Assembly: GCA_037481835.1 (NCBI GenBank)
Contig: JBBFKW010000004.1
Span: forward strand, 14,569 to 78,568
Reading direction: 5' to 3'
DNA: 64,000 nucleotides
From: Desulfosoma sp.
Lineage (GTDB): Bacteria; Desulfobacterota; Syntrophobacteria; Syntrophobacterales; DSM-9756
How positions within the stretch are numbered: the stretch's first letter is position 1; the number at the start of each line of letters is the position of its first letter. The notes under the pieces were generated by a model. That model searched no databases and was not told where the DNA came from. It saw nothing but the letters and a program-made list of their open reading frames with translations. Positions 289 through 63,362 of the stretch are shown one piece after another. The position numbers and the translations under genes are program-made.

Positions 289-2640
289 ATGCCCATGGGC
301 CGGAAAAGAGACAAGGCGAAGTCTAATTGTCCACGAGAAATTGGCGACGAAGGTGAGCTGTCTATGGAGGAAGGGCGACCTGACGCCGGCCGAAAGCCCG
401 CAGTCCCTGGCGGCTTTCCCTTCAAGGCTTCGCCTGCCGGAGCTCAAGGGGGGCTCGATGCCCCTCCTCCGCGAAAACTCCCGGAACTGCTGGCCCCGGC
501 CGGCCATTTGGAGGCGCTCTGGGCGGCGGTGGAAAGCGGGGCCGACGCCGTCTATGTGGGCCTCAAAAAGCTGAGCGCTCGCGCTCATGCCGCCAATTTT
601 ACCCTAGACGAGCTCGCCCGCCTTCTCCCCTTCACCCGAAGTCGGGGGGTGGCCCTGTACACGGCTCTGAACAGCGTGATCACGGCCTCCGAAGTCCCCT
701 CCGTGCTGGATGTGCTTCAGGCTCTGTCGGATCTCGCCGTAGACGCCGTGATTGTCCAGGATCCGGGGATCTTTCTCCTCTGTCGTCGATATTTTCCTTC
801 CCTTAAGGTGCATGCGAGCACCCTTGCGGCGGTGCACAATAGTGCGGGGGTGAACGTCCTGGAACGGCTCGGCGCCCGCCGCATCGTCCTCGCCCGGGAA
901 CTCACCCTTGAGGAAATCCGGGCCATCCGGAACCGGACCCAGGCGGAACTGGAAATTTTCGTGCACGGAGCCCTGTGCTATTCTTTTTCCGGGCTGTGTC
1001 TTGCCAGCAGCTTTCGAGGCGGCCACAGCGGCCTGCAGGGACGATGCGTCCAGCCATGCCGGCTTCGGTTTACCCAGGGCCGAAAGTCGGGTTACTTTTT
1101 TTCATGTAACGATCTCTGTGCGCTCGATCGCATCCCGACGCTGAAAAGACTCGGCCTGACGGCTTTTAAGATCGAAGGGCGCATGAAGGACGCCGAATAC
1201 ATCGCCACCGTCGTTCGAGCCTACCGCCATGTGATGGACGCCCCGGACAGCCGTGCCCGCGATGCGGTGGAGGAAGCCCGGGAATGGCTGACTGACGCCC
1301 CGGCGCGACGCCTTACCGACGGTTTTCTCGGCACTCATGCCCCGACCCATATTCTCAGTCCCCACCGCTCGGGATCCAGCGGCCTCTGGGTCGCTACGGT
1401 GAAATCGATCGGCCCGGACGGGCTTCGGGTCGATGTGCGCCACGCCGTCCGAACAGGGGATCGGCTGCGCCCCGAATCTTCGGAAGAAAAAGAATCCCCG
1501 GCGGTCATCGTCGAAGGAATCCTTGGGGAAAACGGCACCCTTGTCGAGGAATCCCCCCCTCAGGGCCCGGCGGTTCTCACCATCCGCGGGCGCATGGAAG
1601 CGCCGCCGGACGCCCGGCTTTTCCGCATCGGGAGAAAACCCCTTTCTCTCAGCAAACTCTGGCAGCAGATCACGGCAAAGAGCCCGGACGGGTCCTTCCC
1701 GGCCATGGCCCGTCCTTTTTCCGCAAATGCACAATATTCCCGTTTCCGGCATCCTGAGGCTCTTGATGAGGAGTTCTCGCACGGGGCGGCCAACGTGCGG
1801 CGCCTGAACCCTTCCCTGTGGATCAAGATCCGCTCATTGGCCGATCTGGGTCGCGCCATGGCATCGCCGGCCCAGAAGGTCTGGCTTACGGCCAGTCGGG
1901 AAAACCTGGAAAAAATGGCCAAAAGACGCCTGCACGACGCTCAAAAAGAGCGCTTCGGCTGGGCGCTCCCGCCGGTTCTTTTTGAAAGAGATGAAGATTA
2001 CTACCGCAAAGCCGTAGCGTGGTACATTTCCAAGGGCTATCGTTCCTGGGAAATCAACAACTGGGGCCATCTGGACTGGTTCTTTCCCGAGGCGCAAGCC
2101 TCTCTCACGGCCGGATCCCGCATGAACATCCGGAACAAAGCGGCCATGGCCGCCTTGGGCCGACTGGGATGCCGCTGGACGGTTCTCTCGTGGGAGATCA
2201 CCCGGGAAGAACTTCGAGAACTCATCATGGATCCCGTGCCTACGGTCCCGGTGGTTCCGGTATACGGTCGGCCGCCCCTTTTTCTTTCCCGGATTCATCC
2301 GCCCATTTTGGAAGATCGGCCCGTGAAGACACCGCGCGGAGAAACCTACATCTACCGAAAAGAAGGACCCTTGGCCGCCCTGTACGCCGACCGGCCGGTC
2401 AATTGGTTTGAAAAGATTCCGGATCTCCAGGCCATGGGATATCGCACTTTCCTTATGGACATGGGGGATGTCACACCCACCACGGAGCCTCGGGAATGGG
2501 AAAGGCTGCTCAGCGGGTACTTGCGCCAGCGCGCCGATGCACCCTATTCGCTCTTTAACTACGACAGGAAACCCATCCCCGAGGGCGCAAGGGCCGGCGA
2601 TCCGTCGCCAGATCCGCCGTCGGTGATGCGAAAATCGTGA
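289..2640 (+). CDS. Peptidase U32 family protein (RlhA/TrhP-like prephenate-dependent RNA hydroxylase)
   Basis: PELLAPAG, GADAVYVG, LARELTL, HGALCYSFSGLC...RCVQPCR, FKIEGR; start uncertain (ATG 364 possible). Confidence 0.85.
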   Translation: MPMGRKRDKAKSNCPREIGDEGELSMEEGRPDAGRKPAVPGGFPFKASPAGAQGGLDAPPPRKLPELLAPAGHLEALWAAVESGADAVYVGLKKLSARAHAANFTLDELARLLPFTRSRGVALYTALNSVITASEVPSVLDVLQALSDLAVDAVIVQDPGIFLLCRRYFPSLKVHASTLAAVHNSAGVNVLERLGARRIVLARELTLEEIRAIRNRTQAELEIFVHGALCYSFSGLCLASSFRGGHSGLQGRCVQPCRLRFTQGRKSGYFFSCNDLCALDRIPTLKRLGLTAFKIEGRMKDAEYIATVVRAYRHVMDAPDSRARDAVEEAREWLTDAPARRLTDGFLGTHAPTHILSPHRSGSSGLWVATVKSIGPDGLRVDVRHAVRTGDRLRPESSEEKESPAVIVEGILGENGTLVEESPPQGPAVLTIRGRMEAPPDARLFRIGRKPLSLSKLWQQITAKSPDGSFPAMARPFSANAQYSRFRHPEALDEEFSHGAANVRRLNPSLWIKIRSLADLGRAMASPAQKVWLTASRENLEKMAKRRLHDAQKERFGWALPPVLFERDEDYYRKAVAWYISKGYRSWEINNWGHLDWFFPEAQASLTAGSRMNIRNKAAMAALGRLGCRWTVLSWEITREELRELIMDPVPTVPVVPVYGRPPLFLSRIHPPILEDRPVKTPRGETYIYRKEGPLAALYADRPVNWFEKIPDLQAMGYRTFLMDMGDVTPTTEPREWERLLSGYLRQRADAPYSLFNYDRKPIPEGARAGDPSPDPPSVMRKS

Positions 2641-7750: not shown

Positions 7751-9769
7751 CTATTCTCTGTCTGCCACCGCATGGTCCAGGGGAAAATCGCTTTCCCTCT
7801 CGAACCGATCCTCCAAGGCCTCCAGCTCCAAAGCCGTCTGCTCCCAGAGCTCGGTCACGCCGGCGATTTCCCGGGCGCACTCCTGAAAGCGCCGCTGCAG
7901 CGCCGCCACATCGGTTCTTCCTTGGTATGTGGCGGGATCGGCTAAAAGGACGCTCAGCCGATCCCGTTCGTCATGGAGACGATCCAAGTCCTTTTCCAAG
8001 CCCGCCAGGCGGTCTTGGAGCGGCTTCTTCAAACGGTAGAGGGCGTTGCGCCGTTCGGCTTCCCATCTCTTGCGCTCTTTAGGGTCAGGCTTCGACCTGG
8101 AAGCATCTCGGAACTCCTCGGGCCCCTTACCCCCCGAATCCATGACGGCTTGTTCGCCGCCGCGGAAAGTGCCTTTCCACAGCCGCTCGTAATCGTCGGC
8201 GTTCCCCGGCAGCAGCTCCACCCGGCCTCCTCCGACCACCAGGATCTTATCGGCCAGGACATTGATGAAATGCCGGTCGTGGCTTACGAAACACACGGTG
8301 CCTGTGTACGCCGCCAGGGCTTCTTCCAGCATTTCCCGACCGGGAATGTCCAAATGGTTCGTCGGCTCGTCCAACAGCAAAACGTTGGGCGCCTGCACCA
8401 ACAGCTTGCACAGGCTCAGGCGGGCCTTTTCTCCGCCGCTGAGGACGCCGACTTTCTTTTCCACATCGTCACCCCTAAAGAGGAAGGCTCCCAGCAAAGT
8501 TCTTACCTGGGTGTGCGGCATGGCTCCGGAAACCGAGAGAAGTTCCCCGAGAACGGTGTTGTTCGAGTTGAGTTCCTCCCACAGGTGCTGGGCGTAGTAG
8601 CCGATTTTTACGTTATGGCCGCGCCGCACTTCGCCGCCCGTCACGGACTCTTTTCCGGCAAGGATTTTCAGGAGCGTGCTCTTGCCCGCCCCGTTGGGTC
8701 CGAGAAAGGCAATGCGGTCGCCGCGTTCCACCACCAGATCCACCCCGTCGTAGACCACCTGGGGTCCGTAAGCCTTGCGGATTCCCACCAGTTCCAAGAC
8801 ACGTCGCCCGCACCGGTCGGGGTCGGGAAACTGGAAGTGCACGGTCTCCTGATTCGCCGGACCTTCGATCCGCTCCATCTTCTCCAGCATCTTGAGGCGG
8901 CTTTGGACTTGGCGAGCCCGGTCTTTCCGCACCCGGTTGCGGGCGATGAACCTTTCCATATGGCGGATGCGCGCTTCTTGATTCTCCTTGGCCGCTTCCA
9001 AGACGCGGCGCCGGACGGCTTTTTCTTCCATGTAGCGATCGAAGTCGCCCTGGTAAATGTCCACACGGCCGTTTTCCAGCTCGAAAATCCGATGGACCAC
9101 GCGGTTTAAGAAGGATCGGTCGTGCGACACCACGAGAACCGCCGAACGTGTCTCCTGAAGGTAAGATTCCAACCAGAGGATGGATTCCAGATCCAAGTGG
9201 TTGGTAGGTTCGTCCAAGAGGAGGACATCGGGTTGAGCGAGAAGAAGCCGCGCCAGTTCAACCCGCATGGCCCATCCGCCACTTAAGGAAGCCAAAGGCG
9301 TGTGGAAATCTTTTTCACCGAAGCCGAGTCCCATAAGAATCTTACGGGCGCGGGCTTCCAAATCGTAGGGCCTGAGATGCTCCAGTCGATCCAGGAGCGC
9401 GGCATGGCGCCGGGCAAGAGCCTCGGCGGCATTCGCCGTTGGGGCCTCTTTGAGTGCCGTTTCCAGCTCTTCTATTTGGCGGCGCAACTCAAACACTTCG
9501 GCACATACCCCTTGGGTGTGTGCCAAAACGGTGGTTTCATCCGAAGGGCGCCACTGCTGGGGAAGGTAGCCCAAGGTAAGGTTTTTGGCGCGGCTCACGA
9601 GGCCGGCATCGGGCTCCAGGTCGCCGAGCACAATCCGAAACAACGTGGTCTTGCCGGCTCCATTGGGCCCGACGACCCCGATACGGTCGCCGGGATGGAT
9701 ATGAAAGGAGACACTTCGAAAAAGTTCTCTATTACCGAGAAACTTACTGACATTCTGAACGGCGATCAA
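7751..9769 (-). CDS. ABC-F family ATPase (Uup/YheS-like)
   Basis: Two NBDs (GPNGAGKT/S, LSGG, LLLDEPTNHLD), linker, C-terminal coiled coil, no TM segments. Confidence 0.92.
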   Translation of the reverse strand: MIAVQNVSKFLGNRELFRSVSFHIHPGDRIGVVGPNGAGKTTLFRIVLGDLEPDAGLVSRAKNLTLGYLPQQWRPSDETTVLAHTQGVCAEVFELRRQIEELETALKEAPTANAAEALARRHAALLDRLEHLRPYDLEARARKILMGLGFGEKDFHTPLASLSGGWAMRVELARLLLAQPDVLLLDEPTNHLDLESILWLESYLQETRSAVLVVSHDRSFLNRVVHRIFELENGRVDIYQGDFDRYMEEKAVRRRVLEAAKENQEARIRHMERFIARNRVRKDRARQVQSRLKMLEKMERIEGPANQETVHFQFPDPDRCGRRVLELVGIRKAYGPQVVYDGVDLVVERGDRIAFLGPNGAGKSTLLKILAGKESVTGGEVRRGHNVKIGYYAQHLWEELNSNNTVLGELLSVSGAMPHTQVRTLLGAFLFRGDDVEKKVGVLSGGEKARLSLCKLLVQAPNVLLLDEPTNHLDIPGREMLEEALAAYTGTVCFVSHDRHFINVLADKILVVGGGRVELLPGNADDYERLWKGTFRGGEQAVMDSGGKGPEEFRDASRSKPDPKERKRWEAERRNALYRLKKPLQDRLAGLEKDLDRLHDERDRLSVLLADPATYQGRTDVAALQRRFQECAREIAGVTELWEQTALELEALEDRFERESDFPLDHAVADRE

Positions 9770-9780
9770 TCACGGCCACC

Positions 9781-10200
9781 TCAATAGACCCATTTGCCGT
9801 TGGCGAACCGAAAGACTTCCGTCACGGCGCGCGTCCCGCAGGCGAAAGGTCCCTTGGCCGCTTCATTGCGGCTCTTTCCTTCGCTCTCGCACACTTTTTC
9901 TTCATAACTCAAAATCCCCACAAAAGGGCAGCCCTTGTTATCCGTCTTCTTCACGCGGGCTTCCTTAAACTCTCCCAATTCCGAATATCGTGCCACAACT
10001 TTCTTCTGGCCTTTGATCTCTTCGAAGGAAATGTTTTCCGGACCGTAGTTTCCGTGTTGGGTGAGTTTTTTCATCCATTCGGCCCGAAAGCTTTCAAAGA
10101 GCTGGCAGGCTTCTTTCTCGTCGGTCGCCCGGGCGTCCCAAGAGACGAGGAAACTGAAACCGAGGACGAGCAGTATGGCGAAGGCGGCTTTTTTCCCCAT
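9781..10200 (-). CDS. Exported hypothetical protein
   Basis: Signal peptide MGKKAAFAILLVLGF...ARA, four Cys, aromatic C-terminus. Confidence 0.7.
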   Translation of the reverse strand: MGKKAAFAILLVLGFSFLVSWDARATDEKEACQLFESFRAEWMKKLTQHGNYGPENISFEEIKGQKKVVARYSELGEFKEARVKKTDNKGCPFVGILSYEEKVCESEGKSRNEAAKGPFACGTRAVTEVFRFANGKWVY

Positions 10201-10214
10201 GGTCGTATGCTCCC

Positions 10215-10250
10215 AAAAAAGAGGCCGGGCACACCGTGATGCCCAGCCTC
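10215..10250 (-). terminator. Intrinsic terminator after the OmpA gene
   Basis: GAGGCTGGGCA...TGCCCGGCCTC stem followed by T6 on minus strand. Confidence 0.75.
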
Positions 10251-10270
10251 CAACAGGTCATCCTATATGA

Positions 10271-11299
10271 TTATTGAACGACTTTAATTTCCACGCGCCG
10301 GTTCATACGACGGCCTTCTTCCGTGCTGTTGTCCGCCTTGGGCTTGGATTCACCGTACCCCACGGTCTTCATGCGGGAAGCACTGATGCCCTTGGAGACG
10401 AAGTAGTTGAACACGGACTTGGCGCGCCGTTCGGACAACTTCTGGTTGTAGGCGTCGGTCCCGAGGGCGCAGGTGTGGCCTTCGATAATGATGTGGATCT
10501 GCGGGTTCTTGGAGAGCACCGCGGCACCTTCATCGAGCACCGGCTTCCATTCGGGCTTGATGTCGGCTTTGTCGAAGTCGAAGTTGATCCCGCGCAGGAT
10601 GATCACTTCTTCCTTCTTGGCTTCCACCGCCGTGGTGTAGAAGACGTCCTTGACGAACTGCTTCAAGGCCGCTTGGTCGGCAAGGAGCGTGGCGCCTTCG
10701 GCGTGGACGCCGCAACCGCCGATGGCGCTGATTTTCTTAAGGATTTCAGCCCCCTTGGGCTCGTCTGCAAAGCTGATCACATGAAAACACACCTGCGGGT
10801 ACTTCGTCTTAATCGCCTGAGCCGCCGCGACGGGATCCGGGCCTTGATTCGCGCCGCCGTCCGAGACAATGATCACGCCCGTCTTTCCGCTCAGGCCGGC
10901 AAGGACCGTATCCAGCGAGCTGATGCCCGGGCCCATGGGGGTGAGTCGACCGAAAATGTCCTGCTCATTTTTGATCTTGGCGATGCCTTCCCCAAAAGCG
11001 CTTCTCTTGTACACGGCCGGGTCGGAGATCTTCTGCCACGGGGCGAAAAGATCCAAGGCGCCCTTGTATCCCAGCTCGGGAATTTCATCGTTCATCTTGA
11101 ACATGACTTCTTTGGCCAAAGCCATCTTGACCTTGCCCAGCTTGGTGTGGGTCATGTACATGGAGCCGGACTGGTCGGGAAAAAGAATAAAATTGTCAAT
11201 TTTGGGGATGAGCTTCGTTTGGGCCTGAACCGGTCCGCACAGGAACCAGCCCACGAGAAAAACCGCCAACAAAAGCATCCATCTTTTCTTTCCCTCCAT
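10271..11299 (-). CDS. OmpA-family protein with N-terminal vWA domain
   Basis: Signal peptide; MIDAS-like DQSGS and SDG; INFDFDK, EGHT, NQKLSERRA, NRRVEI. Confidence 0.9.
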   Translation of the reverse strand: MEGKKRWMLLLAVFLVGWFLCGPVQAQTKLIPKIDNFILFPDQSGSMYMTHTKLGKVKMALAKEVMFKMNDEIPELGYKGALDLFAPWQKISDPAVYKRSAFGEGIAKIKNEQDIFGRLTPMGPGISSLDTVLAGLSGKTGVIIVSDGGANQGPDPVAAAQAIKTKYPQVCFHVISFADEPKGAEILKKISAIGGCGVHAEGATLLADQAALKQFVKDVFYTTAVEAKKEEVIILRGINFDFDKADIKPEWKPVLDEGAAVLSKNPQIHIIIEGHTCALGTDAYNQKLSERRAKSVFNYFVSKGISASRMKTVGYGESKPKADNSTEEGRRMNRRVEIKVVQ

Positions 11300-11533
11300 A
11301 AAACGCTCCTTTCTTTTCCAGTGTGAAACCGTTCAGGGGTGTGGGTGAAAAAAATGCGTCGGCCGATATATCCAGGTCGCTTGACACACCACCCGCCTTC
11401 TCAAAAAGGCGATGCGGCACCATGACCTTTCACCCATGGTTGCGAAAATGATCCCGTGCACAGCGCCTATTTCTCATGAAAGCCTTTGTCAGGTTAGGGG
11501 CGATCGTGAAAATTTTCTGCTCTCAGTCTTTGT

Positions 11534-11562
11534 AGGGTAAACAACGAAAGGCATGGAGTCAA
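11534..11562 (-). promoter_or_regulatory. Putative sigma70 promoter of the OmpA gene
   Basis: TTGACT-N17-TACCCT. Confidence 0.5.
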
Positions 11563-11607
11563 GCCGCAACTCGCATGGTTACAGCCTATTAGGCCCTTTG
11601 CCCCCGT

Positions 11608-13623
11608 TTATGCAAGAAACTTTTTCACGCCTTCCTCCACCGCAAGGCTTAAAAACCACTCCCGGTGCCGGAAAAGAAGGCCCTTGGCGACCATATCGTC
11701 CAGAAAACCGCGCAAGCCCTCCAGCGAAAAGCGCTCATGTTCCTTTTCCAGGACGTCCAAAGGTTTCGGATCGAGACAGCTCAGATAAACCTCACGGGAA
11801 GCCTTGGAGAGCCGATACGTTGTCTGGACACGCCCATGCCGGTCCCGGCGACGAATAAGGAGAAAAGTGCCGCCGTCGAGATATCCCAGTTTCGGCTTTC
11901 CCCCACCCGTGCTTCGGCGAAAGGCCGCGTCCTCCCGTTGCCATTCCCTCAAAAGATCCCATACGGGTCGCCACAAACGGCGCTGCCGAAGACGATCGCA
12001 TCGATATCCCTTGACCATAAAGCGTGCTTGTCTGAAGATTTCTTCCGGAAAAAGCAGCGCGTAATGGGGGTGGTTGCCGATACCCTTCAGGCCGTATTTC
12101 TCAGGCTCGAAGGCCATGGGACTCCCTTCCCCAAGCCAGAACCGCACACCCTTCAAGGGACGATAGACATTGACGGCCCGAAGGACATCCAGTGTTTCGT
12201 GCACGTCTTGGGGTGTGCTGCCGGGGAATTCCAAAATGAGATTGGAACGGTTCTCGATGCCGAATTCTTCACAGTGTCTCATCCAGGCCACATTGTGGAT
12301 GACGTGAGTCCCCTTGCCCATGCGCCGGAGCAGCCCGTCACTCAAGGCCTCGATGCCCGCCTGGATCTCGCGGAACCCCGCCAGGCGAAGACCGCGCACC
12401 TCTTGTCGAGAAAGCGGCAAACGCACTTCACCAAAGAGGTGAAAATCTTTCCCAGACCTTTGAATCGCTTGGGTCGTTTCGGCAACCTTCGCCGGGTTCA
12501 AGGCATTATCCACGAAGACGAAGCGAAGGCTCTTGTGCTCATCGGCCAGCGCCGCCAGCTCCTTGGCAATTCGATGCGGCGCCTTGGATCGGTAGCCGCG
12601 CCACTGTAAATTGAGGTTACAGAACCTGCAGGCTCTCTTGTGCGGCTGTTCTTCCCGCGCCGTGTGCCACCAGCAGCCTCGACTGGATTCCACTGGAATC
12701 GTGTAAATCGGCGTGCGCGCGTCCCCGACGTCTTGGGCCTGTCGGAAAAAGTCGCTGTAGTCCGGAACGGGCAGCTCGCCCAGGTTCGTCACCTGGCTCC
12801 ATCCCCCGCCGTCCACGCGGCTGTCTTGTCGTCGAAAAAAGATGCCCGGACCCCACCGCTGCACACCTTCCGAAGAAGCCCCTGGCAGAGGCTTTTCTGA
12901 AGCGCTCGGGCCCGCCGGCCCATTCTCGTCGGCCGGATTCTCTAGAACGCACCGTTCGTGTCTGTGGGCGGCTTGAAAAGGAGCCCGGTCCTCCGGCGCT
13001 GGATGGATCTGCGGTCCCCCTTGAAGGAAAAACAGGCGGGATACCAGGTTCGCCAGAGGTTTTTCGCCTTCACCGCTGACGACGAAATCGATCCACGGAA
13101 AGGTTTCCATAAGGGATTTTCCCAGGACACTGCTGACCAAGCTTCCCCCAAGAACGATCGGCACGTCGGGAAGGCGCTCTTTTAAAGCGCAAGCCAAAAA
13201 AAGAGAGGAGGTGAGCTGGGCGAAACAAACGGAAAACCCCACGAGGTGCGCCTTTTCCAGATCGCGCCATAACGGCATGCTTTCGTGAAAGTCTTTAATT
13301 TTTCGGCAGATCTCTTCGAATGCGGGAAGAGCTCCCCCTTTGGCGCGCGGCCAGTGTTTGGAAAAAAGCCGAGCACATGCTTCAATGCGTTCCGGATACA
13401 GGAGAGCGGCGTAGACGGCTTCGCCGAGCCAACTGCGTTCGGCAAGGCGCCGGTAAAGCGAGCGGCCCAAAACCCTTTCCACATCGATGTAAGGGTGGGC
13501 CGCCGCCGTGTGGACGGCGCCGCCGAACACACGCTTCATATAGGCTTTGAGAGAACCCAGCTGGATGGAAGGGCGATCGGCCAGGGCCCACGGCATGGAC
13601 ACCAGGATCAATCGCACGGGCAT
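11608..13623 (-). CDS. B12-binding radical SAM protein, RiPP-maturation C-methyltransferase-like (TIGR03975/PoyC-like)
   Basis: LVSMPWA..RPSIQLG.LK N-terminus, B12-domain GFS..FAQ and SGEGE, ESSRGCWW...CRFCNLN, QAGIEALS. Confidence 0.8.
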   Translation of the reverse strand: MPVRLILVSMPWALADRPSIQLGSLKAYMKRVFGGAVHTAAAHPYIDVERVLGRSLYRRLAERSWLGEAVYAALLYPERIEACARLFSKHWPRAKGGALPAFEEICRKIKDFHESMPLWRDLEKAHLVGFSVCFAQLTSSLFLACALKERLPDVPIVLGGSLVSSVLGKSLMETFPWIDFVVSGEGEKPLANLVSRLFFLQGGPQIHPAPEDRAPFQAAHRHERCVLENPADENGPAGPSASEKPLPGASSEGVQRWGPGIFFRRQDSRVDGGGWSQVTNLGELPVPDYSDFFRQAQDVGDARTPIYTIPVESSRGCWWHTAREEQPHKRACRFCNLNLQWRGYRSKAPHRIAKELAALADEHKSLRFVFVDNALNPAKVAETTQAIQRSGKDFHLFGEVRLPLSRQEVRGLRLAGFREIQAGIEALSDGLLRRMGKGTHVIHNVAWMRHCEEFGIENRSNLILEFPGSTPQDVHETLDVLRAVNVYRPLKGVRFWLGEGSPMAFEPEKYGLKGIGNHPHYALLFPEEIFRQARFMVKGYRCDRLRQRRLWRPVWDLLREWQREDAAFRRSTGGGKPKLGYLDGGTFLLIRRRDRHGRVQTTYRLSKASREVYLSCLDPKPLDVLEKEHERFSLEGLRGFLDDMVAKGLLFRHREWFLSLAVEEGVKKFLA

Positions 13624-14028
13624 CTAAAACAGCCTTTTCACCCAAATCAGGCTCAAGGGGGAGCTCATGTCGTATTTGCAAAATCGAGCGATTTCGTTAG
13701 GATCGGCCGCTTGCTTCAAGTCCAGCAACCGGTCAAAATCCCTTTCCACCACCACATTGCAAAAGTCCATGGGCACAGACCGGATGAGGTCCAGCTCATC
13801 GTCTTCCCACAGTTCTTCCGCGATGTCGGACATGCCGTTTTCCAGGGCGTGGTGGACGCACACTTTGAAACACGCCCCGCACTGGCACCGATGAATGGCA
13901 TCGAAATCCATAGGGATGGGTTGCCCTACCTCGCAAAAAGGACACACGATGATGTGTTTGGGAACCGGTCTCTTGGAACGGGCCATGCTCATCGTGGCAT
14001 CGATCCCCCATATCGTAGGCTTTTTCAT
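13624..14028 (-). CDS. Cys-rich hypothetical protein (zinc-ribbon-like)
   Basis: CPFC and CQCGAC; abuts the rSAM start and overlaps the upstream stop (ATGA). Confidence 0.7.
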   Translation of the reverse strand: MKKPTIWGIDATMSMARSKRPVPKHIIVCPFCEVGQPIPMDFDAIHRCQCGACFKVCVHHALENGMSDIAEELWEDDELDLIRSVPMDFCNVVVERDFDRLLDLKQAADPNEIARFCKYDMSSPLSLIWVKRLF

Positions 14029-14207
14029 TCGTCCTCGTCCAAAATCATGTCCGCTTCATTGCCGCAAATGGTGCACTTGCGGGTTTCCTTCTTCTTTTTG
14101 GAAACCACGCCAGGTTGCTCTTCCACGTCAATCCACGTGCATGTCACCACCATATCCGCTTCGTTTCCGCAGTTTTCACAATGACAGACTTGACGCAGCA
14201 TACTCAT
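14025..14207 (-). CDS. 60-aa protein with duplicated CxxCGNEADM motif
   Basis: CENCGNEADMVV and CTICGNEADMIL; strong AGGAAAGGAG RBS; own promoter. Confidence 0.8.
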   Translation of the reverse strand: MSMLRQVCHCENCGNEADMVVTCTWIDVEEQPGVVSKKKKETRKCTICGNEADMILDEDE

Positions 14208-14254
14208 CGGGATCTCCTTTCCTCACAAGGTCTCCGTTCCTTCGTTTTTGAAGG

Positions 14255-14283
14255 ATTATAAGGTCATGTCGCTTGAAATCCAA
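14255..14283 (-). promoter_or_regulatory. Putative sigma70 promoter of the small-protein/rSAM operon
   Basis: TTGGAT-N17-TATAAT. Confidence 0.6.
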
Positions 14284-18936: not shown

Positions 18937-18996
18937 GCATTGTCAATGGACGGTGGAAAACCTACACGGTCGATCTCTTCCAGGTTCAAACTTCGT

Positions 18997-20007
18997 ATGA
19001 GCATCCATGCCTTGAAAAGCATCCGAGGAGCCGGCGGCCTAAACATTTACGCGTTCTTCTTTTTGTGCGCGTTGTGTTTTTTCGCAGGAACGTTGGCTTG
19101 GGTTTTCCCGACCCCAGCTCAGTCGTCCCCTTTGACCGTCGTTGCACGTCAGGACCACGAGCCCTTTTCTTATGCCGACATCCATGGCGAACCCGCCGGC
19201 ATGCTCGTGGATCTTTGGCGACTGTGGGCCCAGCGCACGGGCCGCCCCGTGCGGTTCGTGCTGGCATCGACCCCGGAACTGGAACAATGGCTGAAAGACG
19301 GTCGGGCCGACGTCTGGACCGGGATTTTCCCTTTGGGCTCCCATCCCGACGTTCTCATGACCGACCCGGTGATGCTCCTGTTTCGGGCGCCCACCGTCAC
19401 GACCCATGAAGGCGTTCTGGCCGTGCGCGCCGCCGTGCGAGGAGACAAAGCAGAGCTTCTGGCGGAAATCAGTCTTGGATTTCATCGGCTGACGGAAGAA
19501 GACCGCCGCGCCATGCTCGTCCGGTGGTGGCCGCAGGACGATTTCGTCCATGTGCCACGCGAGCGCATCGCGCTGGGGGCGCTGCTGGGATCCACCTTTC
19601 TTTTCCTTTGGGCCGTAGGCACCTACGTTTTTTACCGGTTCAAACTCAAAGGCAGATCTCAGGAGCTCCTCACCGTGTTGGCCGAACTGCGCCGCAAAAA
19701 CAACGCCTTGCAATCGGAAATCGCCGAACGCCAGCAGGTGGAAAGAGACAAGGAAAGGCTCATCCAGGAGCTTCGCGAAGCGCTGGAAAACGTGCGAAAA
19801 CTCCGCGGGCTCCTTCCCATCTGCGCCTATTGCAAAAAGATTCGAGACGACCAAGGCTATTGGAATCAATTGGAAAGCTATATCAGCCAGCATGCGGACG
19901 TGACCTTCACCCACAGCGTCTGTCCGGAATGTTCGAAAAAAATCTACGCGGAACTCAAGGCCTTCAAGGATGCTGAACAGCAAAAGAAAAAGGCCGCCTC
20001 CGGATAA
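18997..20007 (+). CDS. Membrane sensor: short PBPb-like domain, TM helix, coiled coil, C-terminal CxxC...HxxCxxC domain
   Basis: PFSY...G...GMLVDLW, GRADV; TM segment; LLPICAYCKKIRDD.GYW...FTHSVCPEC; start uncertain. Confidence 0.75.
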   Translation: MSIHALKSIRGAGGLNIYAFFFLCALCFFAGTLAWVFPTPAQSSPLTVVARQDHEPFSYADIHGEPAGMLVDLWRLWAQRTGRPVRFVLASTPELEQWLKDGRADVWTGIFPLGSHPDVLMTDPVMLLFRAPTVTTHEGVLAVRAAVRGDKAELLAEISLGFHRLTEEDRRAMLVRWWPQDDFVHVPRERIALGALLGSTFLFLWAVGTYVFYRFKLKGRSQELLTVLAELRRKNNALQSEIAERQQVERDKERLIQELREALENVRKLRGLLPICAYCKKIRDDQGYWNQLESYISQHADVTFTHSVCPECSKKIYAELKAFKDAEQQKKKAASG

Positions 20008-22897: not shown

Positions 22898-24058
22898 TTA
22901 AAGAGCGGCCGCCAAAAGTTCGGACAGTTCGGCGATTTCCAGCTGCTCCTGCTTGCCCAAACTGTTGCAGGCGTCAATTAACATGTTCATGCAGTAGGGG
23001 CAAGCCGTGGCCAAAACCTCCGCGCCTTTGTCCATAGCGTCCATGACCCGCAGTTCCCCGAAACGTTCCCCCATGGGCACTTCGGCCCAGATGCGGCCGC
23101 CGCCTCCCGCGCAGCACAAGCTCAGCTCCCGGGACCGGCTCAGTTCCACGGCGCCCCCGTCCGCGGTCCTTTCCAGAAGCTGCCGCGGGGCATCGAAGAT
23201 ACCGCTGTGCCGGCCCAGGTAGCAGGGATCATGGAAGGCCACTTTTTTCGATGCATTTGGAGCAAGCTTCAGCCGCCCGTCCTGAACGCATTGGGCCAGC
23301 AGCTCCGTGTAATGGATCACTTCCCACTGCCCGCCCAACTCGGGGTATTCCTGCGTAAAGGTCCACAGGCAGTGCGGGGAGGTGGTGATGATCTTCTTCA
23401 CTCCTTTGGCGTTGAAAAGCTCGATATTTGACTGGGCCAGCTTCTGAAACAGCTCTTCGTCGCCCAGCTTGCGCATGCTCTCGCCGCAGCAGCTTTCTTC
23501 GTTCCCGATGACGCCGAAACGGATCCCCGCGGCCTTCAGCAGCTTCACAATGCTCTGCGCCACCTTGGTGCTCCGCGGGTCGTAGCAGGAGTGGCAACAC
23601 ACGAAGAGAAAGTATTCCGAATCCGGACCGAAGGTCGGCACATCCAACCCCTGCTGCCACGCCGTGCGTTTTTCACGAGGTCCGGACCAGGGATTGCCGT
23701 TGGCATGGGCACTGCCCAGAATGGGGCGCAAATTGGCCGGGGCCATCCCCGCCCCGACGATACTCGCCCGCATGGCGCGCACATTGTCCACGATCTTGAC
23801 ACCTCGAGGGCAATTGCTCTGGCACATGCTGCAGGTGGTGCACGCGAACAGGATGTGCTCGTCTTCAAAGCCTTCCATGCCCATCTGGCCGAGGCGCTGC
23901 ATGTGCCGGATGTTGAACTTTTCGCTGGTTTCCCCGGGCACCAGGCGCCACGGGCACAAGTTGGTGCACAGACCGCACTGCATGCACCAATTGACCGTCT
24001 CCGCACCCATGCTCACGATATAGTCACGCATCTCCAGCGAGACGTATTTCGGTTCCAT
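22898..24058 (-). CDS. Soluble HdrD-like Fe-S protein (2x[4Fe-4S] plus two CCG domains)
   Basis: CMQCGLCTNLCP, CTTCSMCQSNCP, ESCCG, HDPCYLGR, LCCAGGG, TACPYC; no TM helices. Confidence 0.88.
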   Translation of the reverse strand: MEPKYVSLEMRDYIVSMGAETVNWCMQCGLCTNLCPWRLVPGETSEKFNIRHMQRLGQMGMEGFEDEHILFACTTCSMCQSNCPRGVKIVDNVRAMRASIVGAGMAPANLRPILGSAHANGNPWSGPREKRTAWQQGLDVPTFGPDSEYFLFVCCHSCYDPRSTKVAQSIVKLLKAAGIRFGVIGNEESCCGESMRKLGDEELFQKLAQSNIELFNAKGVKKIITTSPHCLWTFTQEYPELGGQWEVIHYTELLAQCVQDGRLKLAPNASKKVAFHDPCYLGRHSGIFDAPRQLLERTADGGAVELSRSRELSLCCAGGGGRIWAEVPMGERFGELRVMDAMDKGAEVLATACPYCMNMLIDACNSLGKQEQLEIAELSELLAAAL

Positions 24059-24097
24059 CTTCTTCTCCTTCCGTACGGGTCTTCCAAGCCCAAACCC

Positions 24098-26317
24098 TTA
24101 AAAACCTTTGTAAGGATTGGGGCCCACGTTTTCCAAGGTAGCGGCGAAGTCGTCCAGAATCTGCGGCAACCGGGCGTAATCGGTGATGGACACCTGCTCG
24201 AAACGGACCCGATCCGATTCCAGCACCAGGCGATCCAGGGTCTCCTTGATCTTGCTCATGCGGATGTTGGCCAATTCGCTGCCTTTGACAAAATGGCACT
24301 GGTAATCGTCGCCATGCTTGCACCCCAGAAGCAGGATGCCGTCGATGCCCTTGGATAGGGCGTCGGCGATCCACACCAGGTTCATGGATCCCAGGCAGCG
24401 CACCGGGATGACCCGAACCCAGGGGTTGTATTGGGCCCGGCGGATACCCACCATGTCCAGAGCAGGGTAGGCGTCGTTTTCGCAGGCCAAGACCACAATG
24501 CGCGGTTTTTCCTCGTCTTCTTCCGGCACATCGATGTTCTTGATGACGTTGCCGATCATGCCCACGGAATAGTTCTTGAACGAGATGATCCGTTCCGGGC
24601 AGGCGCCCATGCACACGCCGCAACGGCGGCACCGCGTGGGGTTGGGCAGGGGGTTGGCTTTCTCGTCTTCGTTGATGGCGCCGAAAGGACATTCTTCTGT
24701 GCATCGCTTGCACTGGGTGCAGCGCTGCATGAAGAATTCGGGATAGCTGAGATCCCCCGCCCTGGGATGGACGGCCTTGCCTTGGGCCGTCATTTCCACA
24801 CACTGGATGGCCTTGAGCGCCGCACCGGCCGCATCGTCCATGGCTCGAGCGTAATCCATGGGCGCGCGCACGGTCCCGGCCGGGTAAATGCCTGTGCGGC
24901 GGGATTCATAGGGGAAACAGATAAAATGGGAATCGGGAAAACCGTACTTCAAGGCCGGCACTTCGGGTCCTTGCCGGTATTCCAAGTTCAGGAGGTTGGA
25001 CACCAAAATGGTGTCGGCCGGGACTTCAAGCTCTTCTTCGCCTTCCTTGGGCTGCTGGGCCTTGTAGGGCTTGCCGAGAGAGGCCGTAGAGACCATGCCC
25101 GTGGCAAGCACCACCAAATCCACGGACTCCGAGACAATGGGCGCTCTTGTGAGCACGTCCTCGGCGGAAACCGTCAAGGCTCCGGAGCCGTCGTCTTCCA
25201 CCGCGGTGACCGTTCCCCGCACAAAGACGACACCGTCCTTCTGGACCTGCTTGTAGAAAAGCTCGTAATTTCCGGTAGCCCTCATGTCCTTGTAGAAAAT
25301 GTAGACGGGCATCTCCGGGTTCTGTTCCTTGAGCACTTTGGCTTGTTTCAGGGATTCCACACAGCAGGCGGCCGAACAATACGGCAGATGCTCGGGGTCG
25401 CGGGACCCGGCGCACAGAACGAAAGCGACGCTCTTTGCGGCCTGCCCATTGGACGGCCGCACGACCCGGCCTTCCTTCAGCATGGCTTCCAATCGATCCG
25501 CCGTGATGACGTCCCCGTGTTTTCCGTAACCCAGATGTCCCAGCTTGTCCGCTTCGTAAGGAACCGAACCCGTCGCCAGCACGATGGCACCGACCCGTTC
25601 GGAGGCCTGCGAGCCGTTGGATTGGATCGTCACGTCGAACATGCACGGCGCTCCGACGATCTTTTTGATCTGAGAGCCGGTATACACGGTGATCTTCTCG
25701 TTTCCGGTCACCGCCGAAACCAGCCCATCCAAGTCGAACGTGTGGGGTTGGTCGTACGGCGGGGCAAGAGGCGGCACGGAGTGCACCGTCTGGAGATAGC
25801 CGCCGAGGGATTGGCTCTTTTCCACCAGAACGACCTCGTATCCTGCGGCGGCGGCTTCCTTGGCGGCCGTGAGGCCCGTCAGCCCCCCGCCGACCACCAA
25901 GATCCGTTTGCTCAAGTTTTCTCCTTGGAACGGGACCGGGGGCTCCATTTCCTTGGCCTTGGTGAGACCCATGCGCAGGTAGTCCTCGGCCATCATCTGG
26001 GTGTCTTCGTCCCCGGCGGGATGACTCCACACCACCTGCTCCCTGAGGTTCACGCGTTCCAGAACTTTGTCGGCCCCGAAATCAAAGACGTCGGTCATGA
26101 CCCGCGGTGAACACGCCGCAATGACCACCGTGTTGACGCCGTGGTTCGAAATATCGTCCGCAATGAGCGCGCGTCCTTCTTCCCCGCACAAAAAGCCGTG
26201 TTCCCGGCACACGGGCACCTTGTGTTCGCCGGTGGCCACCTTGGCCAGCGCCGACACATCCAACGCGTCCCCAATGCCACAGCCCGTGCAGATGTATACG
26301 CCGATTTTCTTATCCAT
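24098..26317 (-). CDS. qmoB: QmoB (HdrA + ferredoxin + MvhD-like domains)
   Basis: AACSPR, GGGLTG, CAGSRD..HLPYCSAACC, two CxxCxxC motifs, CENDAYP...RCLGS...GCKHGDDYQCH, GPNPYKGF. Confidence 0.95.
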   Translation of the reverse strand: MDKKIGVYICTGCGIGDALDVSALAKVATGEHKVPVCREHGFLCGEEGRALIADDISNHGVNTVVIAACSPRVMTDVFDFGADKVLERVNLREQVVWSHPAGDEDTQMMAEDYLRMGLTKAKEMEPPVPFQGENLSKRILVVGGGLTGLTAAKEAAAAGYEVVLVEKSQSLGGYLQTVHSVPPLAPPYDQPHTFDLDGLVSAVTGNEKITVYTGSQIKKIVGAPCMFDVTIQSNGSQASERVGAIVLATGSVPYEADKLGHLGYGKHGDVITADRLEAMLKEGRVVRPSNGQAAKSVAFVLCAGSRDPEHLPYCSAACCVESLKQAKVLKEQNPEMPVYIFYKDMRATGNYELFYKQVQKDGVVFVRGTVTAVEDDGSGALTVSAEDVLTRAPIVSESVDLVVLATGMVSTASLGKPYKAQQPKEGEEELEVPADTILVSNLLNLEYRQGPEVPALKYGFPDSHFICFPYESRRTGIYPAGTVRAPMDYARAMDDAAGAALKAIQCVEMTAQGKAVHPRAGDLSYPEFFMQRCTQCKRCTEECPFGAINEDEKANPLPNPTRCRRCGVCMGACPERIISFKNYSVGMIGNVIKNIDVPEEDEEKPRIVVLACENDAYPALDMVGIRRAQYNPWVRVIPVRCLGSMNLVWIADALSKGIDGILLLGCKHGDDYQCHFVKGSELANIRMSKIKETLDRLVLESDRVRFEQVSITDYARLPQILDDFAATLENVGPNPYKGF

Positions 26318-26321
26318 GGAC

Positions 26322-27590
26322 CTACCTCCTCACCATCGCCTGAATCGCCTTAAGGGCTGCCGCCGTCGCATCCTGCACACTGGACGCCACATCCACCGGG
26401 CGTTTCACACATCCGGCCGGGATGACGCCGCCTGACGGTTGGGCCGAAAGCATGAAGCCGTGCTCATCGTAGGCGGCTTCCGCCGGGACCTTTTGGTCCG
26501 CCGTCGTCGGGACCATCCCCGTGGCCAGAACCACCAGATCGAAAGCGTCCCGAAGAATGGCTCCCGTCTGTTGATCTTCCACCTGCACGGTCACTTGGCC
26601 CGTTTCCGCGTTTTCCCAAATTTCACCCGGCTTGCCCTTCACGAACCGGATCCGTGCATCCGATTGGACCTTTGTGTAAAAGTCCTCGTATTTTCCGAGA
26701 GCCCGAATGTCGATGTAAAAGATGGTGACGGAGGCCTGGGGGTTCTGATCCAGGACGTAGGTGGCCTGTTTCAGCGACGCCAGGCAGCAGATGCCGGAAC
26801 AGTAGGGCAGATGGTTCTCATCCCGCGAGCCGGCGCATTGCACGAAGGCGACGCGCTGCACAGGAGCGCCGTCCGAAGGGCGGACGATATTCCCCTTGGT
26901 CGGCCCGTTGGTGGACGCCAAGCGTTCCATCATGACGTTGGTGATGACGTTTTTGTATCGGCCGGCGCCGTAGTAGGCGATCTTGGATGCATCGTAGGGC
27001 ATCCAGCCGGTGGCCCAAATGACAGCCCCCACTTTCAGGTCGAAGACCTTTTCCTGCATGTCCAAATCCACGGCACCGTATGGGCAGGCCGCTCGAATCT
27101 TTTCCGCCTCCGCCGTGCCCACCACCTCCGGGGCGATGACGTAGCGCAAGGGGAAGGCGAATTCGTGGGGAAGATACGCCGCCTTCACCGTGCTCAAACC
27201 GTAGTCGAAGGGATTGGGCACTTCCGTTTCAGCCGCTTGGGCACACAGCCCGCACGCCGTGCACTTTTCGTTCACGTAGCGAGGGGCCATCTTCACCGTC
27301 ACGTCCAGATCCCCGGGTTGGCCGGCGATATTGACGACCTCAGCCATGGTGAAAAACCGCACCAGGGGGTTGTTCTTAATCCTCCTGAAGTTGATTTCAA
27401 GCCCGCAGGCCGGCGGGCACAGCTTGGGAAAGTATTTGTTCATCCGGGCCACGCGCCCGCCCAAAAACGGTTCCTTTTCGACGATGTAGACCGGAAAACC
27501 GGCTTCCGCCGCCTCCAGGGCCGCGCTCAGGCCGCTCATCCCGCCTCCTAGCACCAATACGCTGCGATGGCCGTTCGTCACATCCGACAT
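26322..27590 (-). CDS. qmoA: QmoA (HdrA-like flavoprotein)
   Basis: GGGMSG, KYFPKLCPP.CGLEINF, QCAGSRDENHLPYCSGICC; follows aprA. Confidence 0.95.
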   Translation of the reverse strand: MSDVTNGHRSVLVLGGGMSGLSAALEAAEAGFPVYIVEKEPFLGGRVARMNKYFPKLCPPACGLEINFRRIKNNPLVRFFTMAEVVNIAGQPGDLDVTVKMAPRYVNEKCTACGLCAQAAETEVPNPFDYGLSTVKAAYLPHEFAFPLRYVIAPEVVGTAEAEKIRAACPYGAVDLDMQEKVFDLKVGAVIWATGWMPYDASKIAYYGAGRYKNVITNVMMERLASTNGPTKGNIVRPSDGAPVQRVAFVQCAGSRDENHLPYCSGICCLASLKQATYVLDQNPQASVTIFYIDIRALGKYEDFYTKVQSDARIRFVKGKPGEIWENAETGQVTVQVEDQQTGAILRDAFDLVVLATGMVPTTADQKVPAEAAYDEHGFMLSAQPSGGVIPAGCVKRPVDVASSVQDATAAALKAIQAMVRR

Positions 27591-27692
27591 GGATTCTCCT
27601 CCGCTGCAAAGGATTGGCCGCACACCATCCGCCGCCTTTCGGTCTTGTCACCTTTTGTGCCTCGGATTCCCTCGGCGGCCTGGGTGTGCGTC

Positions 27693-30375: not shown

Positions 30376-31611
30376 CTATTTCTTGGCCGGAGCGTCCCCT
30401 GTGGCCGCTCCGTGAAGTTTAATTTCCACCTTTTCTTCCAAGCTCGCGTAGTATTCTTTAAGAATTTCCAAGACTTCCGGCCGCGAAAAGTGCGGATCGA
30501 GCTCCCCGCCCTCCGACAAGGTCTTGCGGACCATGGTGCCGGAGAGAATCAACCGGTCGGCCTTGCCGTGCGGACAGGTCCTCATGGAAGCCATGCCGTC
30601 GCACTTGAAGCACCAGAATGTCCAGTCGATCTTAAGCGGCTTGGTGATGAGGGCGTCTTTCGGGATTTCATCGAAGATCTTCTGAGCGTCAAACGGACCG
30701 TAATAGTCGCCCACCCCGGCATGGTCGCGGCCGACGATGAGGTGGCTGCAGCCGTAGTTTTGACGGAACACGGCATGGAGCAACGCTTCGCGAGGTCCGC
30801 CGTAACGCATTTCCGCCGGATAGCCGCCCACGACGATGGTGTCTTTGACAAAGTAGTTGTCCACCAGAGCGTCGATGGCTTTCTTGCGCACGTCGGCGGG
30901 GATGTCGCCGGCCTTGAGCTTGCCCAGCAACTGGTGGATGTAGACGCCGTCCATGACTTCCACGGCGATCTTGCAGAGATACTCATGGCTGCGGTGCATG
31001 GGGTTGCGGGTCTGGAAAGCCGCGACTTGGGACCAGCCTTTTTCGTCAAAAATCTTGCGGGCTAAGGCCGGCGTCTGATAGGTCCCCTTGAAGACTTCCG
31101 GGTAGAAGCTTTCGCTCAAAACCTTCACGGGACCGGCCAGATTGAATTCCTTCTGGGCCATGACTTTGGCCACGCCCGGGTGCCCCGCCGCATCGGTCGT
31201 CCAGAACACGGACTTGCATTCGTGTTCCTTGTCGATGGTATATTTTTCCGTCACCTTCATGGTGCCAAGGATCTGGTCGTTTTCCACATCCCACAGGGCC
31301 ACCTCTTCGTTGGGCGCCAAGCTCCCCGCCAAATCCTTGTCGGCAGACAGGGTGATGGGAATGGGCCAGAACGTCCCGTCTGCCATCTTGTACTCGTCAC
31401 AGACCCCCTTCCAGTCGTCGTAACCCATGAACCCTTCCAGGGGCGTGAAGGCACCGATGCCCAGCATGACCAGGTCCGACGCCTCGCGGCTCGTCATGGG
31501 GACCTTTTTCAGGGTCTTGGCCCTTTCCATTTCGGCCTTCCGGGCTTCACCTTCCAAGAGCAGGGGTTTGAGCTTTCTTTCTTTCCCGTGGGGAGGAACC
31601 AACTTGGACAT
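30376..31611 (-). CDS. sat: Sulfate adenylyltransferase (dissimilatory)
   Basis: [42 protein letters not shown]. Confidence 0.98.
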
Positions 31612-62897: not shown

Positions 62898-62946
62898 TTG
62901 CAAAAGCCTCGGGCCCATGCTAGAGGGTGCGTGAAATCTTTATCAT
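62898..62946 (+). promoter_or_regulatory. Putative sigma70 promoter with adjacent weak Rex-like site
   Basis: TTGCAA-N17-TAGAGG (extended TG) then GCGTGAA-ATCT-TTATCAT, 9/14. Confidence 0.4.
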
Positions 62947-63050
62947 GTCACGAGCTGCCGAGGAGGCAGTGCCTTCGGGATCGGGGGTTTTCACAACAGG
63001 GACAAGCGGCTGGTCACAAGGTCATCGGAGAAGCAGAAGGAGGCAAAGCG

Positions 63051-63362
63051 ATGAAGGTTTTCCTAGGCGGTCTTGCCGCAGCATTTTTCGGCATCATTGG
63101 TATTTTCATTTGGTTTAAGCCTTTCCTCAACCTGCTGGCGGGCGCCATCCCCTTGATGCTGCTCCTCGGCGGCGCCATGGCGGCCTACTTGGGCTACGAC
63201 GAGGTGAAGGATCAGCTCCCCTTTGGCAAGAAGAAAGAGGAAGAAGTCCCTCCGGCCGCTCCCACGGACGACCTTTCCAAGTACAAGGAAGAAGCGGAAA
63301 AGTACAAACAGGAAGTGGAAAAGCTCAAAGCCGAGCTGGAAAAGGCCAAGTCGGCCTCGTAA
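63051..63362 (+). CDS. Small two-TM membrane protein with C-terminal coiled coil
   Basis: AAGGAGG RBS, two hydrophobic helices, Lys/Glu-rich tail, own terminator. Confidence 0.8.
   Translation: MKVFLGGLAAAFFGIIGIFIWFKPFLNLLAGAIPLMLLLGGAMAAYLGYDEVKDQLPFGKKKEEEVPPAAPTDDLSKYKEEAEKYKQEVEKLKAELEKAKSAS

Follow-up and report, generated by a model that had tools for sequence, protein, structure and literature searches.

Within a 64,000-nt stretch of the Desulfosoma sp. genome (assembly GCA_037481835.1, contig JBBFKW010000004.1, positions 14,569 to 78,568; hereafter the window), the open reading frame (ORF) list and the sequence place three genes on the minus strand in one tight order: two short genes for cysteine-rich proteins, termed here p60 and p134, and a gene for a radical S-adenosylmethionine (SAM) enzyme, termed rSAM (Table 1). 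A prior reading of the locus made from its letters alone (the sequence-only reading) had described the overlap of the first two genes and the abutment of the second and third, and the coordinates confirm both junctions.

Table 1. Features of the three-gene locus and of other regions of the window named in the text.
Feature	Position	Strand	Description	Basis
-35-like hexamer	14278..14283	-	TTGGAT; identical in 4/5 aligned sequences	minus-strand sequence read
-10 hexamer	14255..14260	-	TATAAT, 17-nt spacer after the -35-like hexamer; invariant in 5/5 aligned sequences	
Shine-Dalgarno sequence	14214..14218	-	AGGAG, 6 nt 5' of the p60 ATG (14207)	sequence read
p60	14025..14207	-	first gene; 60 aa, 6 Cys	ORF list
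p134	13624..14028	-	134 aa, 8 Cys; start overlaps the p60 stop (ATGA)	ORF list
rSAM	11608..13623	-	671 aa; ATG directly after the p134 TAG	ORF list, family scores
Spacer	11300-11607		non-coding, rSAM stop to OmpA-like gene	
OmpA-domain protein and 139-aa protein	9781-11299	-	3' of the operon	
ABC-F type ATPase	7751..9769			
U32/TrhP-like protein	289..2640			
355-aa ORF	18940-20007	+		
Hdr-like cluster	22898-27623	-		
Sulfate adenylyltransferase	30376-31611	-		
Second B12-binding radical SAM protein	58626-61241	-		
Small membrane protein (probable)	62898-63362	+		

The three genes belong to a single operon that is read from a conserved promoter of the sigma-70 type, and their translation is coupled. 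The TTGGAT-N17-TATAAT promoter and strong ribosome-binding site named in the sequence-only reading can be read in the sequence and are conserved among relatives: in an alignment of the promoter region from the window and four relatives (five sequences), AAGG/GGAG at the ribosome-binding site is kept along with the two hexamers. A consensus promoter scan (two sites found, 1.2 expected by chance) did not list this pair because TTGGAT agrees with TTGACA at only three of six positions; the promoter was accepted because it is conserved among relatives, which is better evidence than the scan. The OmpA-like gene that follows rSAM probably has its own promoter, and the operon therefore ends at rSAM. 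The spacer between them holds a promoter-like pair, TTGACT...TACCCT, which probably drives the OmpA-like gene independently. The same spacer is similar to locus L001, one of the loci surveyed below, in all frames (∼65-70%, tblastx). No Rfam family and no tRNA were found in the window, and therefore no riboswitch.

The product of the third gene scored 328.6 bits (cutoff 281.85, E 7.5e-98) in a hidden Markov model (HMM) search with TIGR03975, the family that NCBI names "RiPP maturation radical SAM C-methyltransferase" (RiPP, a peptide made by the ribosome and modified after translation), which bears out its earlier recognition as a GCWW-type B12 radical SAM enzyme of this family; the GCWW motif comprises G316, C317, W318, and W319. 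The radical SAM domain is recognized as well (PF04055, 45.9 bits, cutoff 29.5), and the B12-binding domain PF02310, which is precomputed for most homologues of the enzyme, matches under its cutoff of 32.1 (27.9 bits, E 2.3e-6). In an alignment of rSAM sequences, C317, C332, C335, and C451 are invariant (122/122), C616 is conserved in 99%, and the B12-domain motifs GGS and SGEGE are conserved. By this conservation, C317, C332, and C335 would be the cluster ligands, in a motif (C317-x14-C332-x2-C335, or CX14CX2C, in the window; CX13CX2C in 100 of 122 relatives) whose spacing differs widely from the canonical CX3CX2C. The gene seems to be intact and functional, and its product may carry out B12-dependent methyl transfer. 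A sequence search of the PDB detected no solved structure related to the enzyme. Its C-terminal domain (residues 540-671) was considered as a possible PqqD-type recognition element, for which neither a PDB profile search (best E 0.044, PcfF) nor Pfam gives support.

The distribution of the operon was followed in a genome scan queried with the p134 alignment, in which 86 stretches encode a relative and 80 species loci were kept. All 80 carry Syntrophobacteraceae-like titles, which name Desulfosoma, Desulfacinum, Desulforhabdus, Desulfoferrobacter, Syntrophobacter, and metagenome-assembled genomes (MAGs) of Syntrophobacteraceae. Because fewer than 600 nt are available downstream of p134 in five loci and fewer than 300 nt upstream in one, the assessable denominators are 75 (downstream) and 79 (upstream). 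The p60 gene was found in nine of the 80 loci (L001-L004, L010, L025, L032, L047, and L080; tblastn and two HMMs), always directly upstream of p134, and searching the remaining 71 with a broader p60-family HMM brought up no diverged copy. That p60 seems to be nested within the range of p134 is a selection artefact, p134 having been the query by which the loci were chosen. The rSAM gene was found in four loci (L001, L010, L025, and L032), all of which carry p60; it is thus present in 4/9 p60-bearing versus 0/71 p60-less loci. In these four and in the window, the end of p134 and the beginning of rSAM meet or overlap (0-4 nt), p60 lies just upstream, and this arrangement holds although the enzymes share only 41-44% identity between lineages. 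In the Desulfacinum loci, L047, and L080, p60-p134 is followed by the OmpA-like gene, and no rSAM remnant was found in the p134-OmpA spacers of rSAM-less loci. In L025 (positions 10400-12268 of that locus), two overlapping ORFs, of 436 and 189 aa, take the place of an intact rSAM orthologue, owing either to a frameshift (a pseudogene) or to a MAG assembly error.

Phylogeny of the enzyme was analyzed with FastTree on 124 rows (120 homologues and the four locus rSAMs). The five rSAMs linked to p134 all belong to a single clade of 32 rows (local support 99); sister clades comprise 59 and 31 rows. An rSAM of Desulfosoma caldarium, P0012 (59% identity), groups with the Desulfosoma enzymes in the tree. 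When the window is compared with L001, L010, L025, and L032, respectively, identity is 72, 44, 43, and 41% for rSAM and 84, 58, 60, and 57% for the neighboring NFACT-R-domain protein; for the neighboring PP-loop protein it is 73, 44, and 45% with L001, L025, and L032, with no value for L010. The divergence of rSAM parallels that of these housekeeping genes and therefore fits vertical co-inheritance. On these sequence comparisons, the p60-p134-rSAM operon fits vertical descent with repeated clean losses. In a quick p134 tree, 68 p60-less rows form one clade (Shimodaira-Hasegawa-like approximate likelihood ratio test support 82), and the rows with p60 are not part of it but fall among the others.

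Strongly conserved homologues were found for both small proteins, and, judged by this conservation, p60 and p134 are real genes under strong constraint, as the sequence-only reading had taken them to be. For p60 there are ten homologue clusters (61-92% identity), and the alignments show conservation over the full length, with no variable core. All six cysteines (C8, C10, C13, C23, C45, and C48) are invariant in the homologue alignments; C10xxC13 and C45xxC48 belong to two CxxCGNEADM knuckles. The protein belongs to a wider, uncurated family marked by a pair of CxxCGNEA[DE]M knuckles: of the 1.84 billion representatives covered by a profile search, 111 (representatives at 50% identity) matched at E<=1e-3, and 40 did so at E<=1e-10. 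Three long matches that were inspected proved to be TDACGN-repeat proteins and spurious, and the other family matches are 29-129 aa with the same two knuckles. The size of the family (111 representatives) suggests that p60-like proteins also occur outside p134 loci. A plasmid search found no p60 match; the ESM Atlas held no informative neighbor for p60 or p134.

With p60, every Pfam and NCBIfam model stays below its cutoff. The desulforedoxin-type FeS4 domain comes near it (20.7 bits, cutoff 23), a miniaturized rubredoxin in the PDB matches at E 0.89, and PDB sequence searches with p60 and p134 gave nothing beyond zinc-ribbon noise of the LysW-like or rubredoxin-like kind (E 0.6-0.9). The AlphaFold2 model of p60 is all-beta (predicted local distance difference test, pLDDT, 80.8), and the top Foldseek matches to it are zinc-ribbon subunits of the ribosome and RNA polymerase, at weak scores (E 0.2-1, TM ∼0.5-0.6). 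From these models, p60 is predicted to be a zinc-ribbon or rubredoxin-like mini-protein.

These properties bear on the possibility that the locus is a classical RiPP pathway, in which p60 is the precursor and genes elsewhere cleave and export the product once it is methylated. The NCBI family name of the enzyme would suit such a pathway, as would the place of p60 at the head of the operon behind the strongest ribosome-binding site, and minimal precursor-rSAM pairs that include neither a protease nor an exporter exist. Yet p60 is conserved end to end where a precursor would have a variable core, is predicted to be a compact zinc ribbon, is kept in genomes that have no rSAM, and has no leader-family match. 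No NHLP or Nif11 match was obtained at E<=0.1 for p60 or the window p134, nor at E<=10 for any of 79 p134 members, and no membrane exporter or RiPP-type protease was found among the long ORFs of the window, whose sole candidates for these roles are an ABC-F type ATPase and a U32/TrhP-like protein. The sequence-only reading had likewise seen no protease, exporter, or Nif11/NHLP leader. Of the parts of a complete RiPP cluster, neither a leader-bearing precursor with a variable core nor a protease or exporter was found, and the neighbors are housekeeping genes only. We therefore regard a classical RiPP pathway as highly improbable.

For p134, 90 homologue clusters were recovered (53-86% identity), among them Sfum_1063 of Syntrophobacter fumaroxidans. 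Across 79 sequences, the eight cysteines, in the pattern CPFC...CxCGACxxxC...C...C, are invariant or near-invariant, and the C-terminus is conserved through the last residue. No Pfam or NCBIfam family cutoff was reached. The AlphaFold2 model is weak (pLDDT 63, and below 50 for residues 1-25), and a structure search with it gave no match (best E 2.7). The conserved small protein p134 is probably metal- or Fe-S-binding. Since the p134 of L032 begins four residues before the CPFC motif, the 25 N-terminal residues of the window p134 are dispensable. Two further ideas were rejected: selenocysteine in the L032 p134, where the in-frame stop precedes a later start codon and does not encode selenocysteine, and an origin of p60 as a duplicate of the zinc-ribbon part of p134, as the two proteins are not homologous (hhalign probability 1.9%). 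In L032, p60 and p134 are separated by a GC-rich, hairpin-like spacer of ∼95 nt (positions 9925-10015 of that locus).

With p134 directly upstream of rSAM and its stop abutting or overlapping the rSAM start in five of five cases, p134 itself may be the methylation target, and p60 an independent accessory partner of p134. Other TIGR03975 contexts that we inspected have the substrate, or a further maturase of the substrate, in this directly upstream position, and the low-confidence N-terminus of p134 could act like a leader. That stretch is not conserved among rSAM-bearing loci, being nearly absent in L032; moreover, no rSAM accompanies p134 in any of the 71 loci from which p60 is missing, and no p134 residue is specific to rSAM-bearing genomes. 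We consider p134 an unlikely target.

Electron transfer offers another role for the small proteins. Radical SAM enzymes require a low-potential reductant, and p60 (rubredoxin-like) and p134 (ferredoxin-like) could be electron donors to rSAM, or mere neighbors of it, with rSAM methylating a peptide or small molecule encoded elsewhere. Matches to ferredoxin III (nif, TIGR02936) were found in 59 of 79 p134 members (best E 0.0015), to NuoI in 30, and to Pfam Fer4 in eight, and the FeS4 and rubredoxin matches of p60 point in the same direction, as does the persistence of both proteins in genomes that have no rSAM. In addition, one survey treats antiSMASH calls based on TIGR03975 only as likely false-positive biosynthetic gene clusters. 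Against this, every metal or ferredoxin signal is weak and under its curated cutoff, the window p134 has no ferredoxin-family match at all, and its motif (CxCxxCxxxC) departs from that of ferredoxins (CxxCxxCxxxCP). No alternative substrate gene is conserved near rSAM or was recognized in the 64-kb window (no small ORF downstream of rSAM is conserved across distant loci), and such strict adjoining of rSAM and p134, kept over deep divergence, is seen more typically in substrate-enzyme or subunit pairs than in genes that are neighbors by chance. A role as donors or bystanders is possible, though in our view doubtful.

The reading we favor, tentatively, is that rSAM is an accessory enzyme, passed on by descent with losses, that adds an optional C-methylation within the cell to p60 or, less likely, to p134. 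Under this proposal, p134 would be a conserved Cys-rich protein of Syntrophobacteraceae-like genomes, p60 a companion retained only in some lineages, and rSAM an additional accessory gene confined to loci with p60. With SAM and cobalamin, the enzyme would place one or more methyl groups on an unactivated carbon of a p60 residue (less probably one of p134) inside the cell, and the methylation would serve as an optional tuning of a folded small metalloprotein, with no secreted peptide, by a logic like that of Mmp10 and QCMT. Consistent with this, rSAM exceeds the TIGR03975 cutoff and keeps all family-invariant residues, and the substrate gene lies immediately upstream in the two other TIGR03975 contexts inspected, those of Ruegeria and Methylomagnum plasmids. 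A more specific version, in which a TIGR03975 "RiPP" enzyme has been recruited to C-methylate p60 as a folded, intracellular, metal-binding mini-protein that works with p134, is rather less likely.

Several observations weigh against this proposal, and the interpretation given in the sequence-only reading is supported in part. The three-gene co-occurrence expected from the sequence-only reading holds in one direction, in that every rSAM in the surveyed loci follows p60-p134 (four of four, plus the window), but in 76 of the 80 loci p134 has no rSAM (in 71 of these, 600 nt or more can be assessed downstream), and p60 lacks it in five of nine. Both small proteins are equally conserved in loci without rSAM, so neither needs modification; they therefore have an rSAM-independent function, and the locus is not an obligate modification system. 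No p134 residue separates rSAM-bearing from rSAM-less genomes, nor does any p60 residue in an alignment inspected by eye. The association of rSAM with p60 comprises only two phylogenetically independent contrasts (sign test p = 1), and the naive Fisher p of 8e-5 ignores relatedness; what the survey adds on p60 as the target is limited to the finding that, over these two contrasts, rSAM is never seen without it. Because the loci were picked through p134, they are silent on rSAMs or p60 relatives elsewhere: the survey does not extend to the rSAMs of the sister clades or of the Desulfosoma caldarium type (P0010-P0013), and no Desulfosoma caldarium locus is among the p134 loci, either because that genome lacks p134 or because it fell outside the search. 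Finally, p60 and p134 both resemble possible electron carriers.

PoyB and PoyC, of the polytheonamide (proteusin) pathway, are members of TIGR03975. Like the window rSAM, they are class B (B12-binding) radical SAM enzymes, and their substrates are ribosomally made. In a review, PoyB and PoyC are listed as iterative and Csp3 methyltransferases, and another paper places a "PoyB group" among radical SAM proteins associated with a RiPP recognition element (RRE). The window operon differs from that pathway in having no NHLP leader precursor, epimerase, N-methyltransferase, protease, or exporter; its neighbors are fully conserved Cys proteins that are predicted to be folded, and not a leader with a variable core, and the cluster motif in the window clade is spaced CX13-14CX2C.

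A non-canonical cluster motif is shared with MpcB, of the MpcB/MpcC system of clavusporin biosynthesis in Streptomyces clavuligerus, described in the clavusporin paper as a B12 radical SAM beta-C-methyltransferase with a CX7CX2C motif that acts on a ribosomal peptide of the same operon. The window rSAM has a match on an S. clavuligerus plasmid, a gene annotated under the family name that NCBI gives the window enzyme; 64% of the query aligns, at 28% identity. The Mpc cluster contains a hydrophobic precursor with leader, core, and follower, as well as an S9 peptidase, a transporter, and DUF5825 as obligatory partner, none of which occurs in the window operon.

On the Ruegeria plasmid, an Os1348-family NHLP gene lies directly upstream of a TIGR03975 rSAM in the same orientation, in an operon that includes neither a protease nor an exporter; on the Methylomagnum plasmid, CefA plus a SPASM maturase lies upstream, likewise in the same orientation, in a CefA/TIGR04463/TIGR03975 cluster. 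The enzymes of both are ∼25% identical to the window rSAM, and their upstream genes belong to recognized RiPP precursor families, whereas p60 and p134 belong to no curated family.

A parallel in logic is provided by Mmp10 and QCMT, which a review describes as B12 radical SAM methylases of methyl-coenzyme M reductase, with a folded protein and not a RiPP as the substrate. As proposed here for the window rSAM, the C-methyl group is placed on a residue of an intracellular protein, but the likeness is in logic only: the enzymes are not of the same family as the window rSAM, and the domain order of Mmp10 is reversed. The window rSAM scored 27.2 bits against the QCMT model (TIGR04014), under a cutoff of 360, and the substrate of Mmp10 and QCMT is a large enzyme, as opposed to the Cys proteins of 60-134 aa in the window.

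Matches to TIGR03975 are routinely labeled as RiPP clusters, and at least one survey, the one cited above, discarded TIGR03975-only calls as likely false positives. If the proposed reading is correct and two folded Cys proteins are the only conserved partners of this rSAM subclade, the subclade would show that TIGR03975 enzymes also modify proteins or small metalloproteins, and that B12-dependent C-methylation can serve as an optional tuning of proteins outside the methyl-coenzyme M reductase of methanogens, and not only in the making of natural products. The locus also presents two uncharacterized protein families, p60 and p134, and a literature search (TIGR03975, Sfum_1063, CGNEA motifs, and B12 radical SAM) returned no account of the operon or of either family. 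Desulfosoma, in which the enzyme is present, and Desulfacinum, in which it is absent, provide a natural comparison for the modification and its effect.

The surroundings of the operon are conserved on one side. The p134 gene is divergent from nth in 74 of 80 loci, and the upstream genes for the NFACT-R-domain protein, the PP-loop protein, and HcyBio are widely syntenic; the downstream side is variable. The 342-aa OmpA-domain protein 3' of the operon is paired with a 139-aa protein that has no family match, and the pair is syntenic with p134 in 12 of 80 loci, including rSAM-less ones.

Judged by its long ORFs, the window carries ordinary genes of a sulfate-reducer chromosome, including dnaE, sat, hdr-like genes, hemA/hemL, uvrA, and ftsK. 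Typical of such an organism are the sulfate adenylyltransferase and the Hdr-like cluster, the latter comprising HdrA-like proteins of 433 and 739 aa with a VhuD-like end and an HdrC/TfrB-like Fe-S protein. A second B12-binding radical SAM protein consists of TIGR03960 (744.9 bits) fused to a TIGR03936 "radical SAM-associated" domain. A 355-aa ORF with a coiled coil and a C-terminal CAYCKK...HSVCPEC motif has no NCBIfam match and overlaps a 363-aa ORF on the opposite strand. Near the end of the window, one product resembles the magnetosome protein MamI weakly and below threshold (29 bits, cutoff 80), and it is probably just a small membrane protein.

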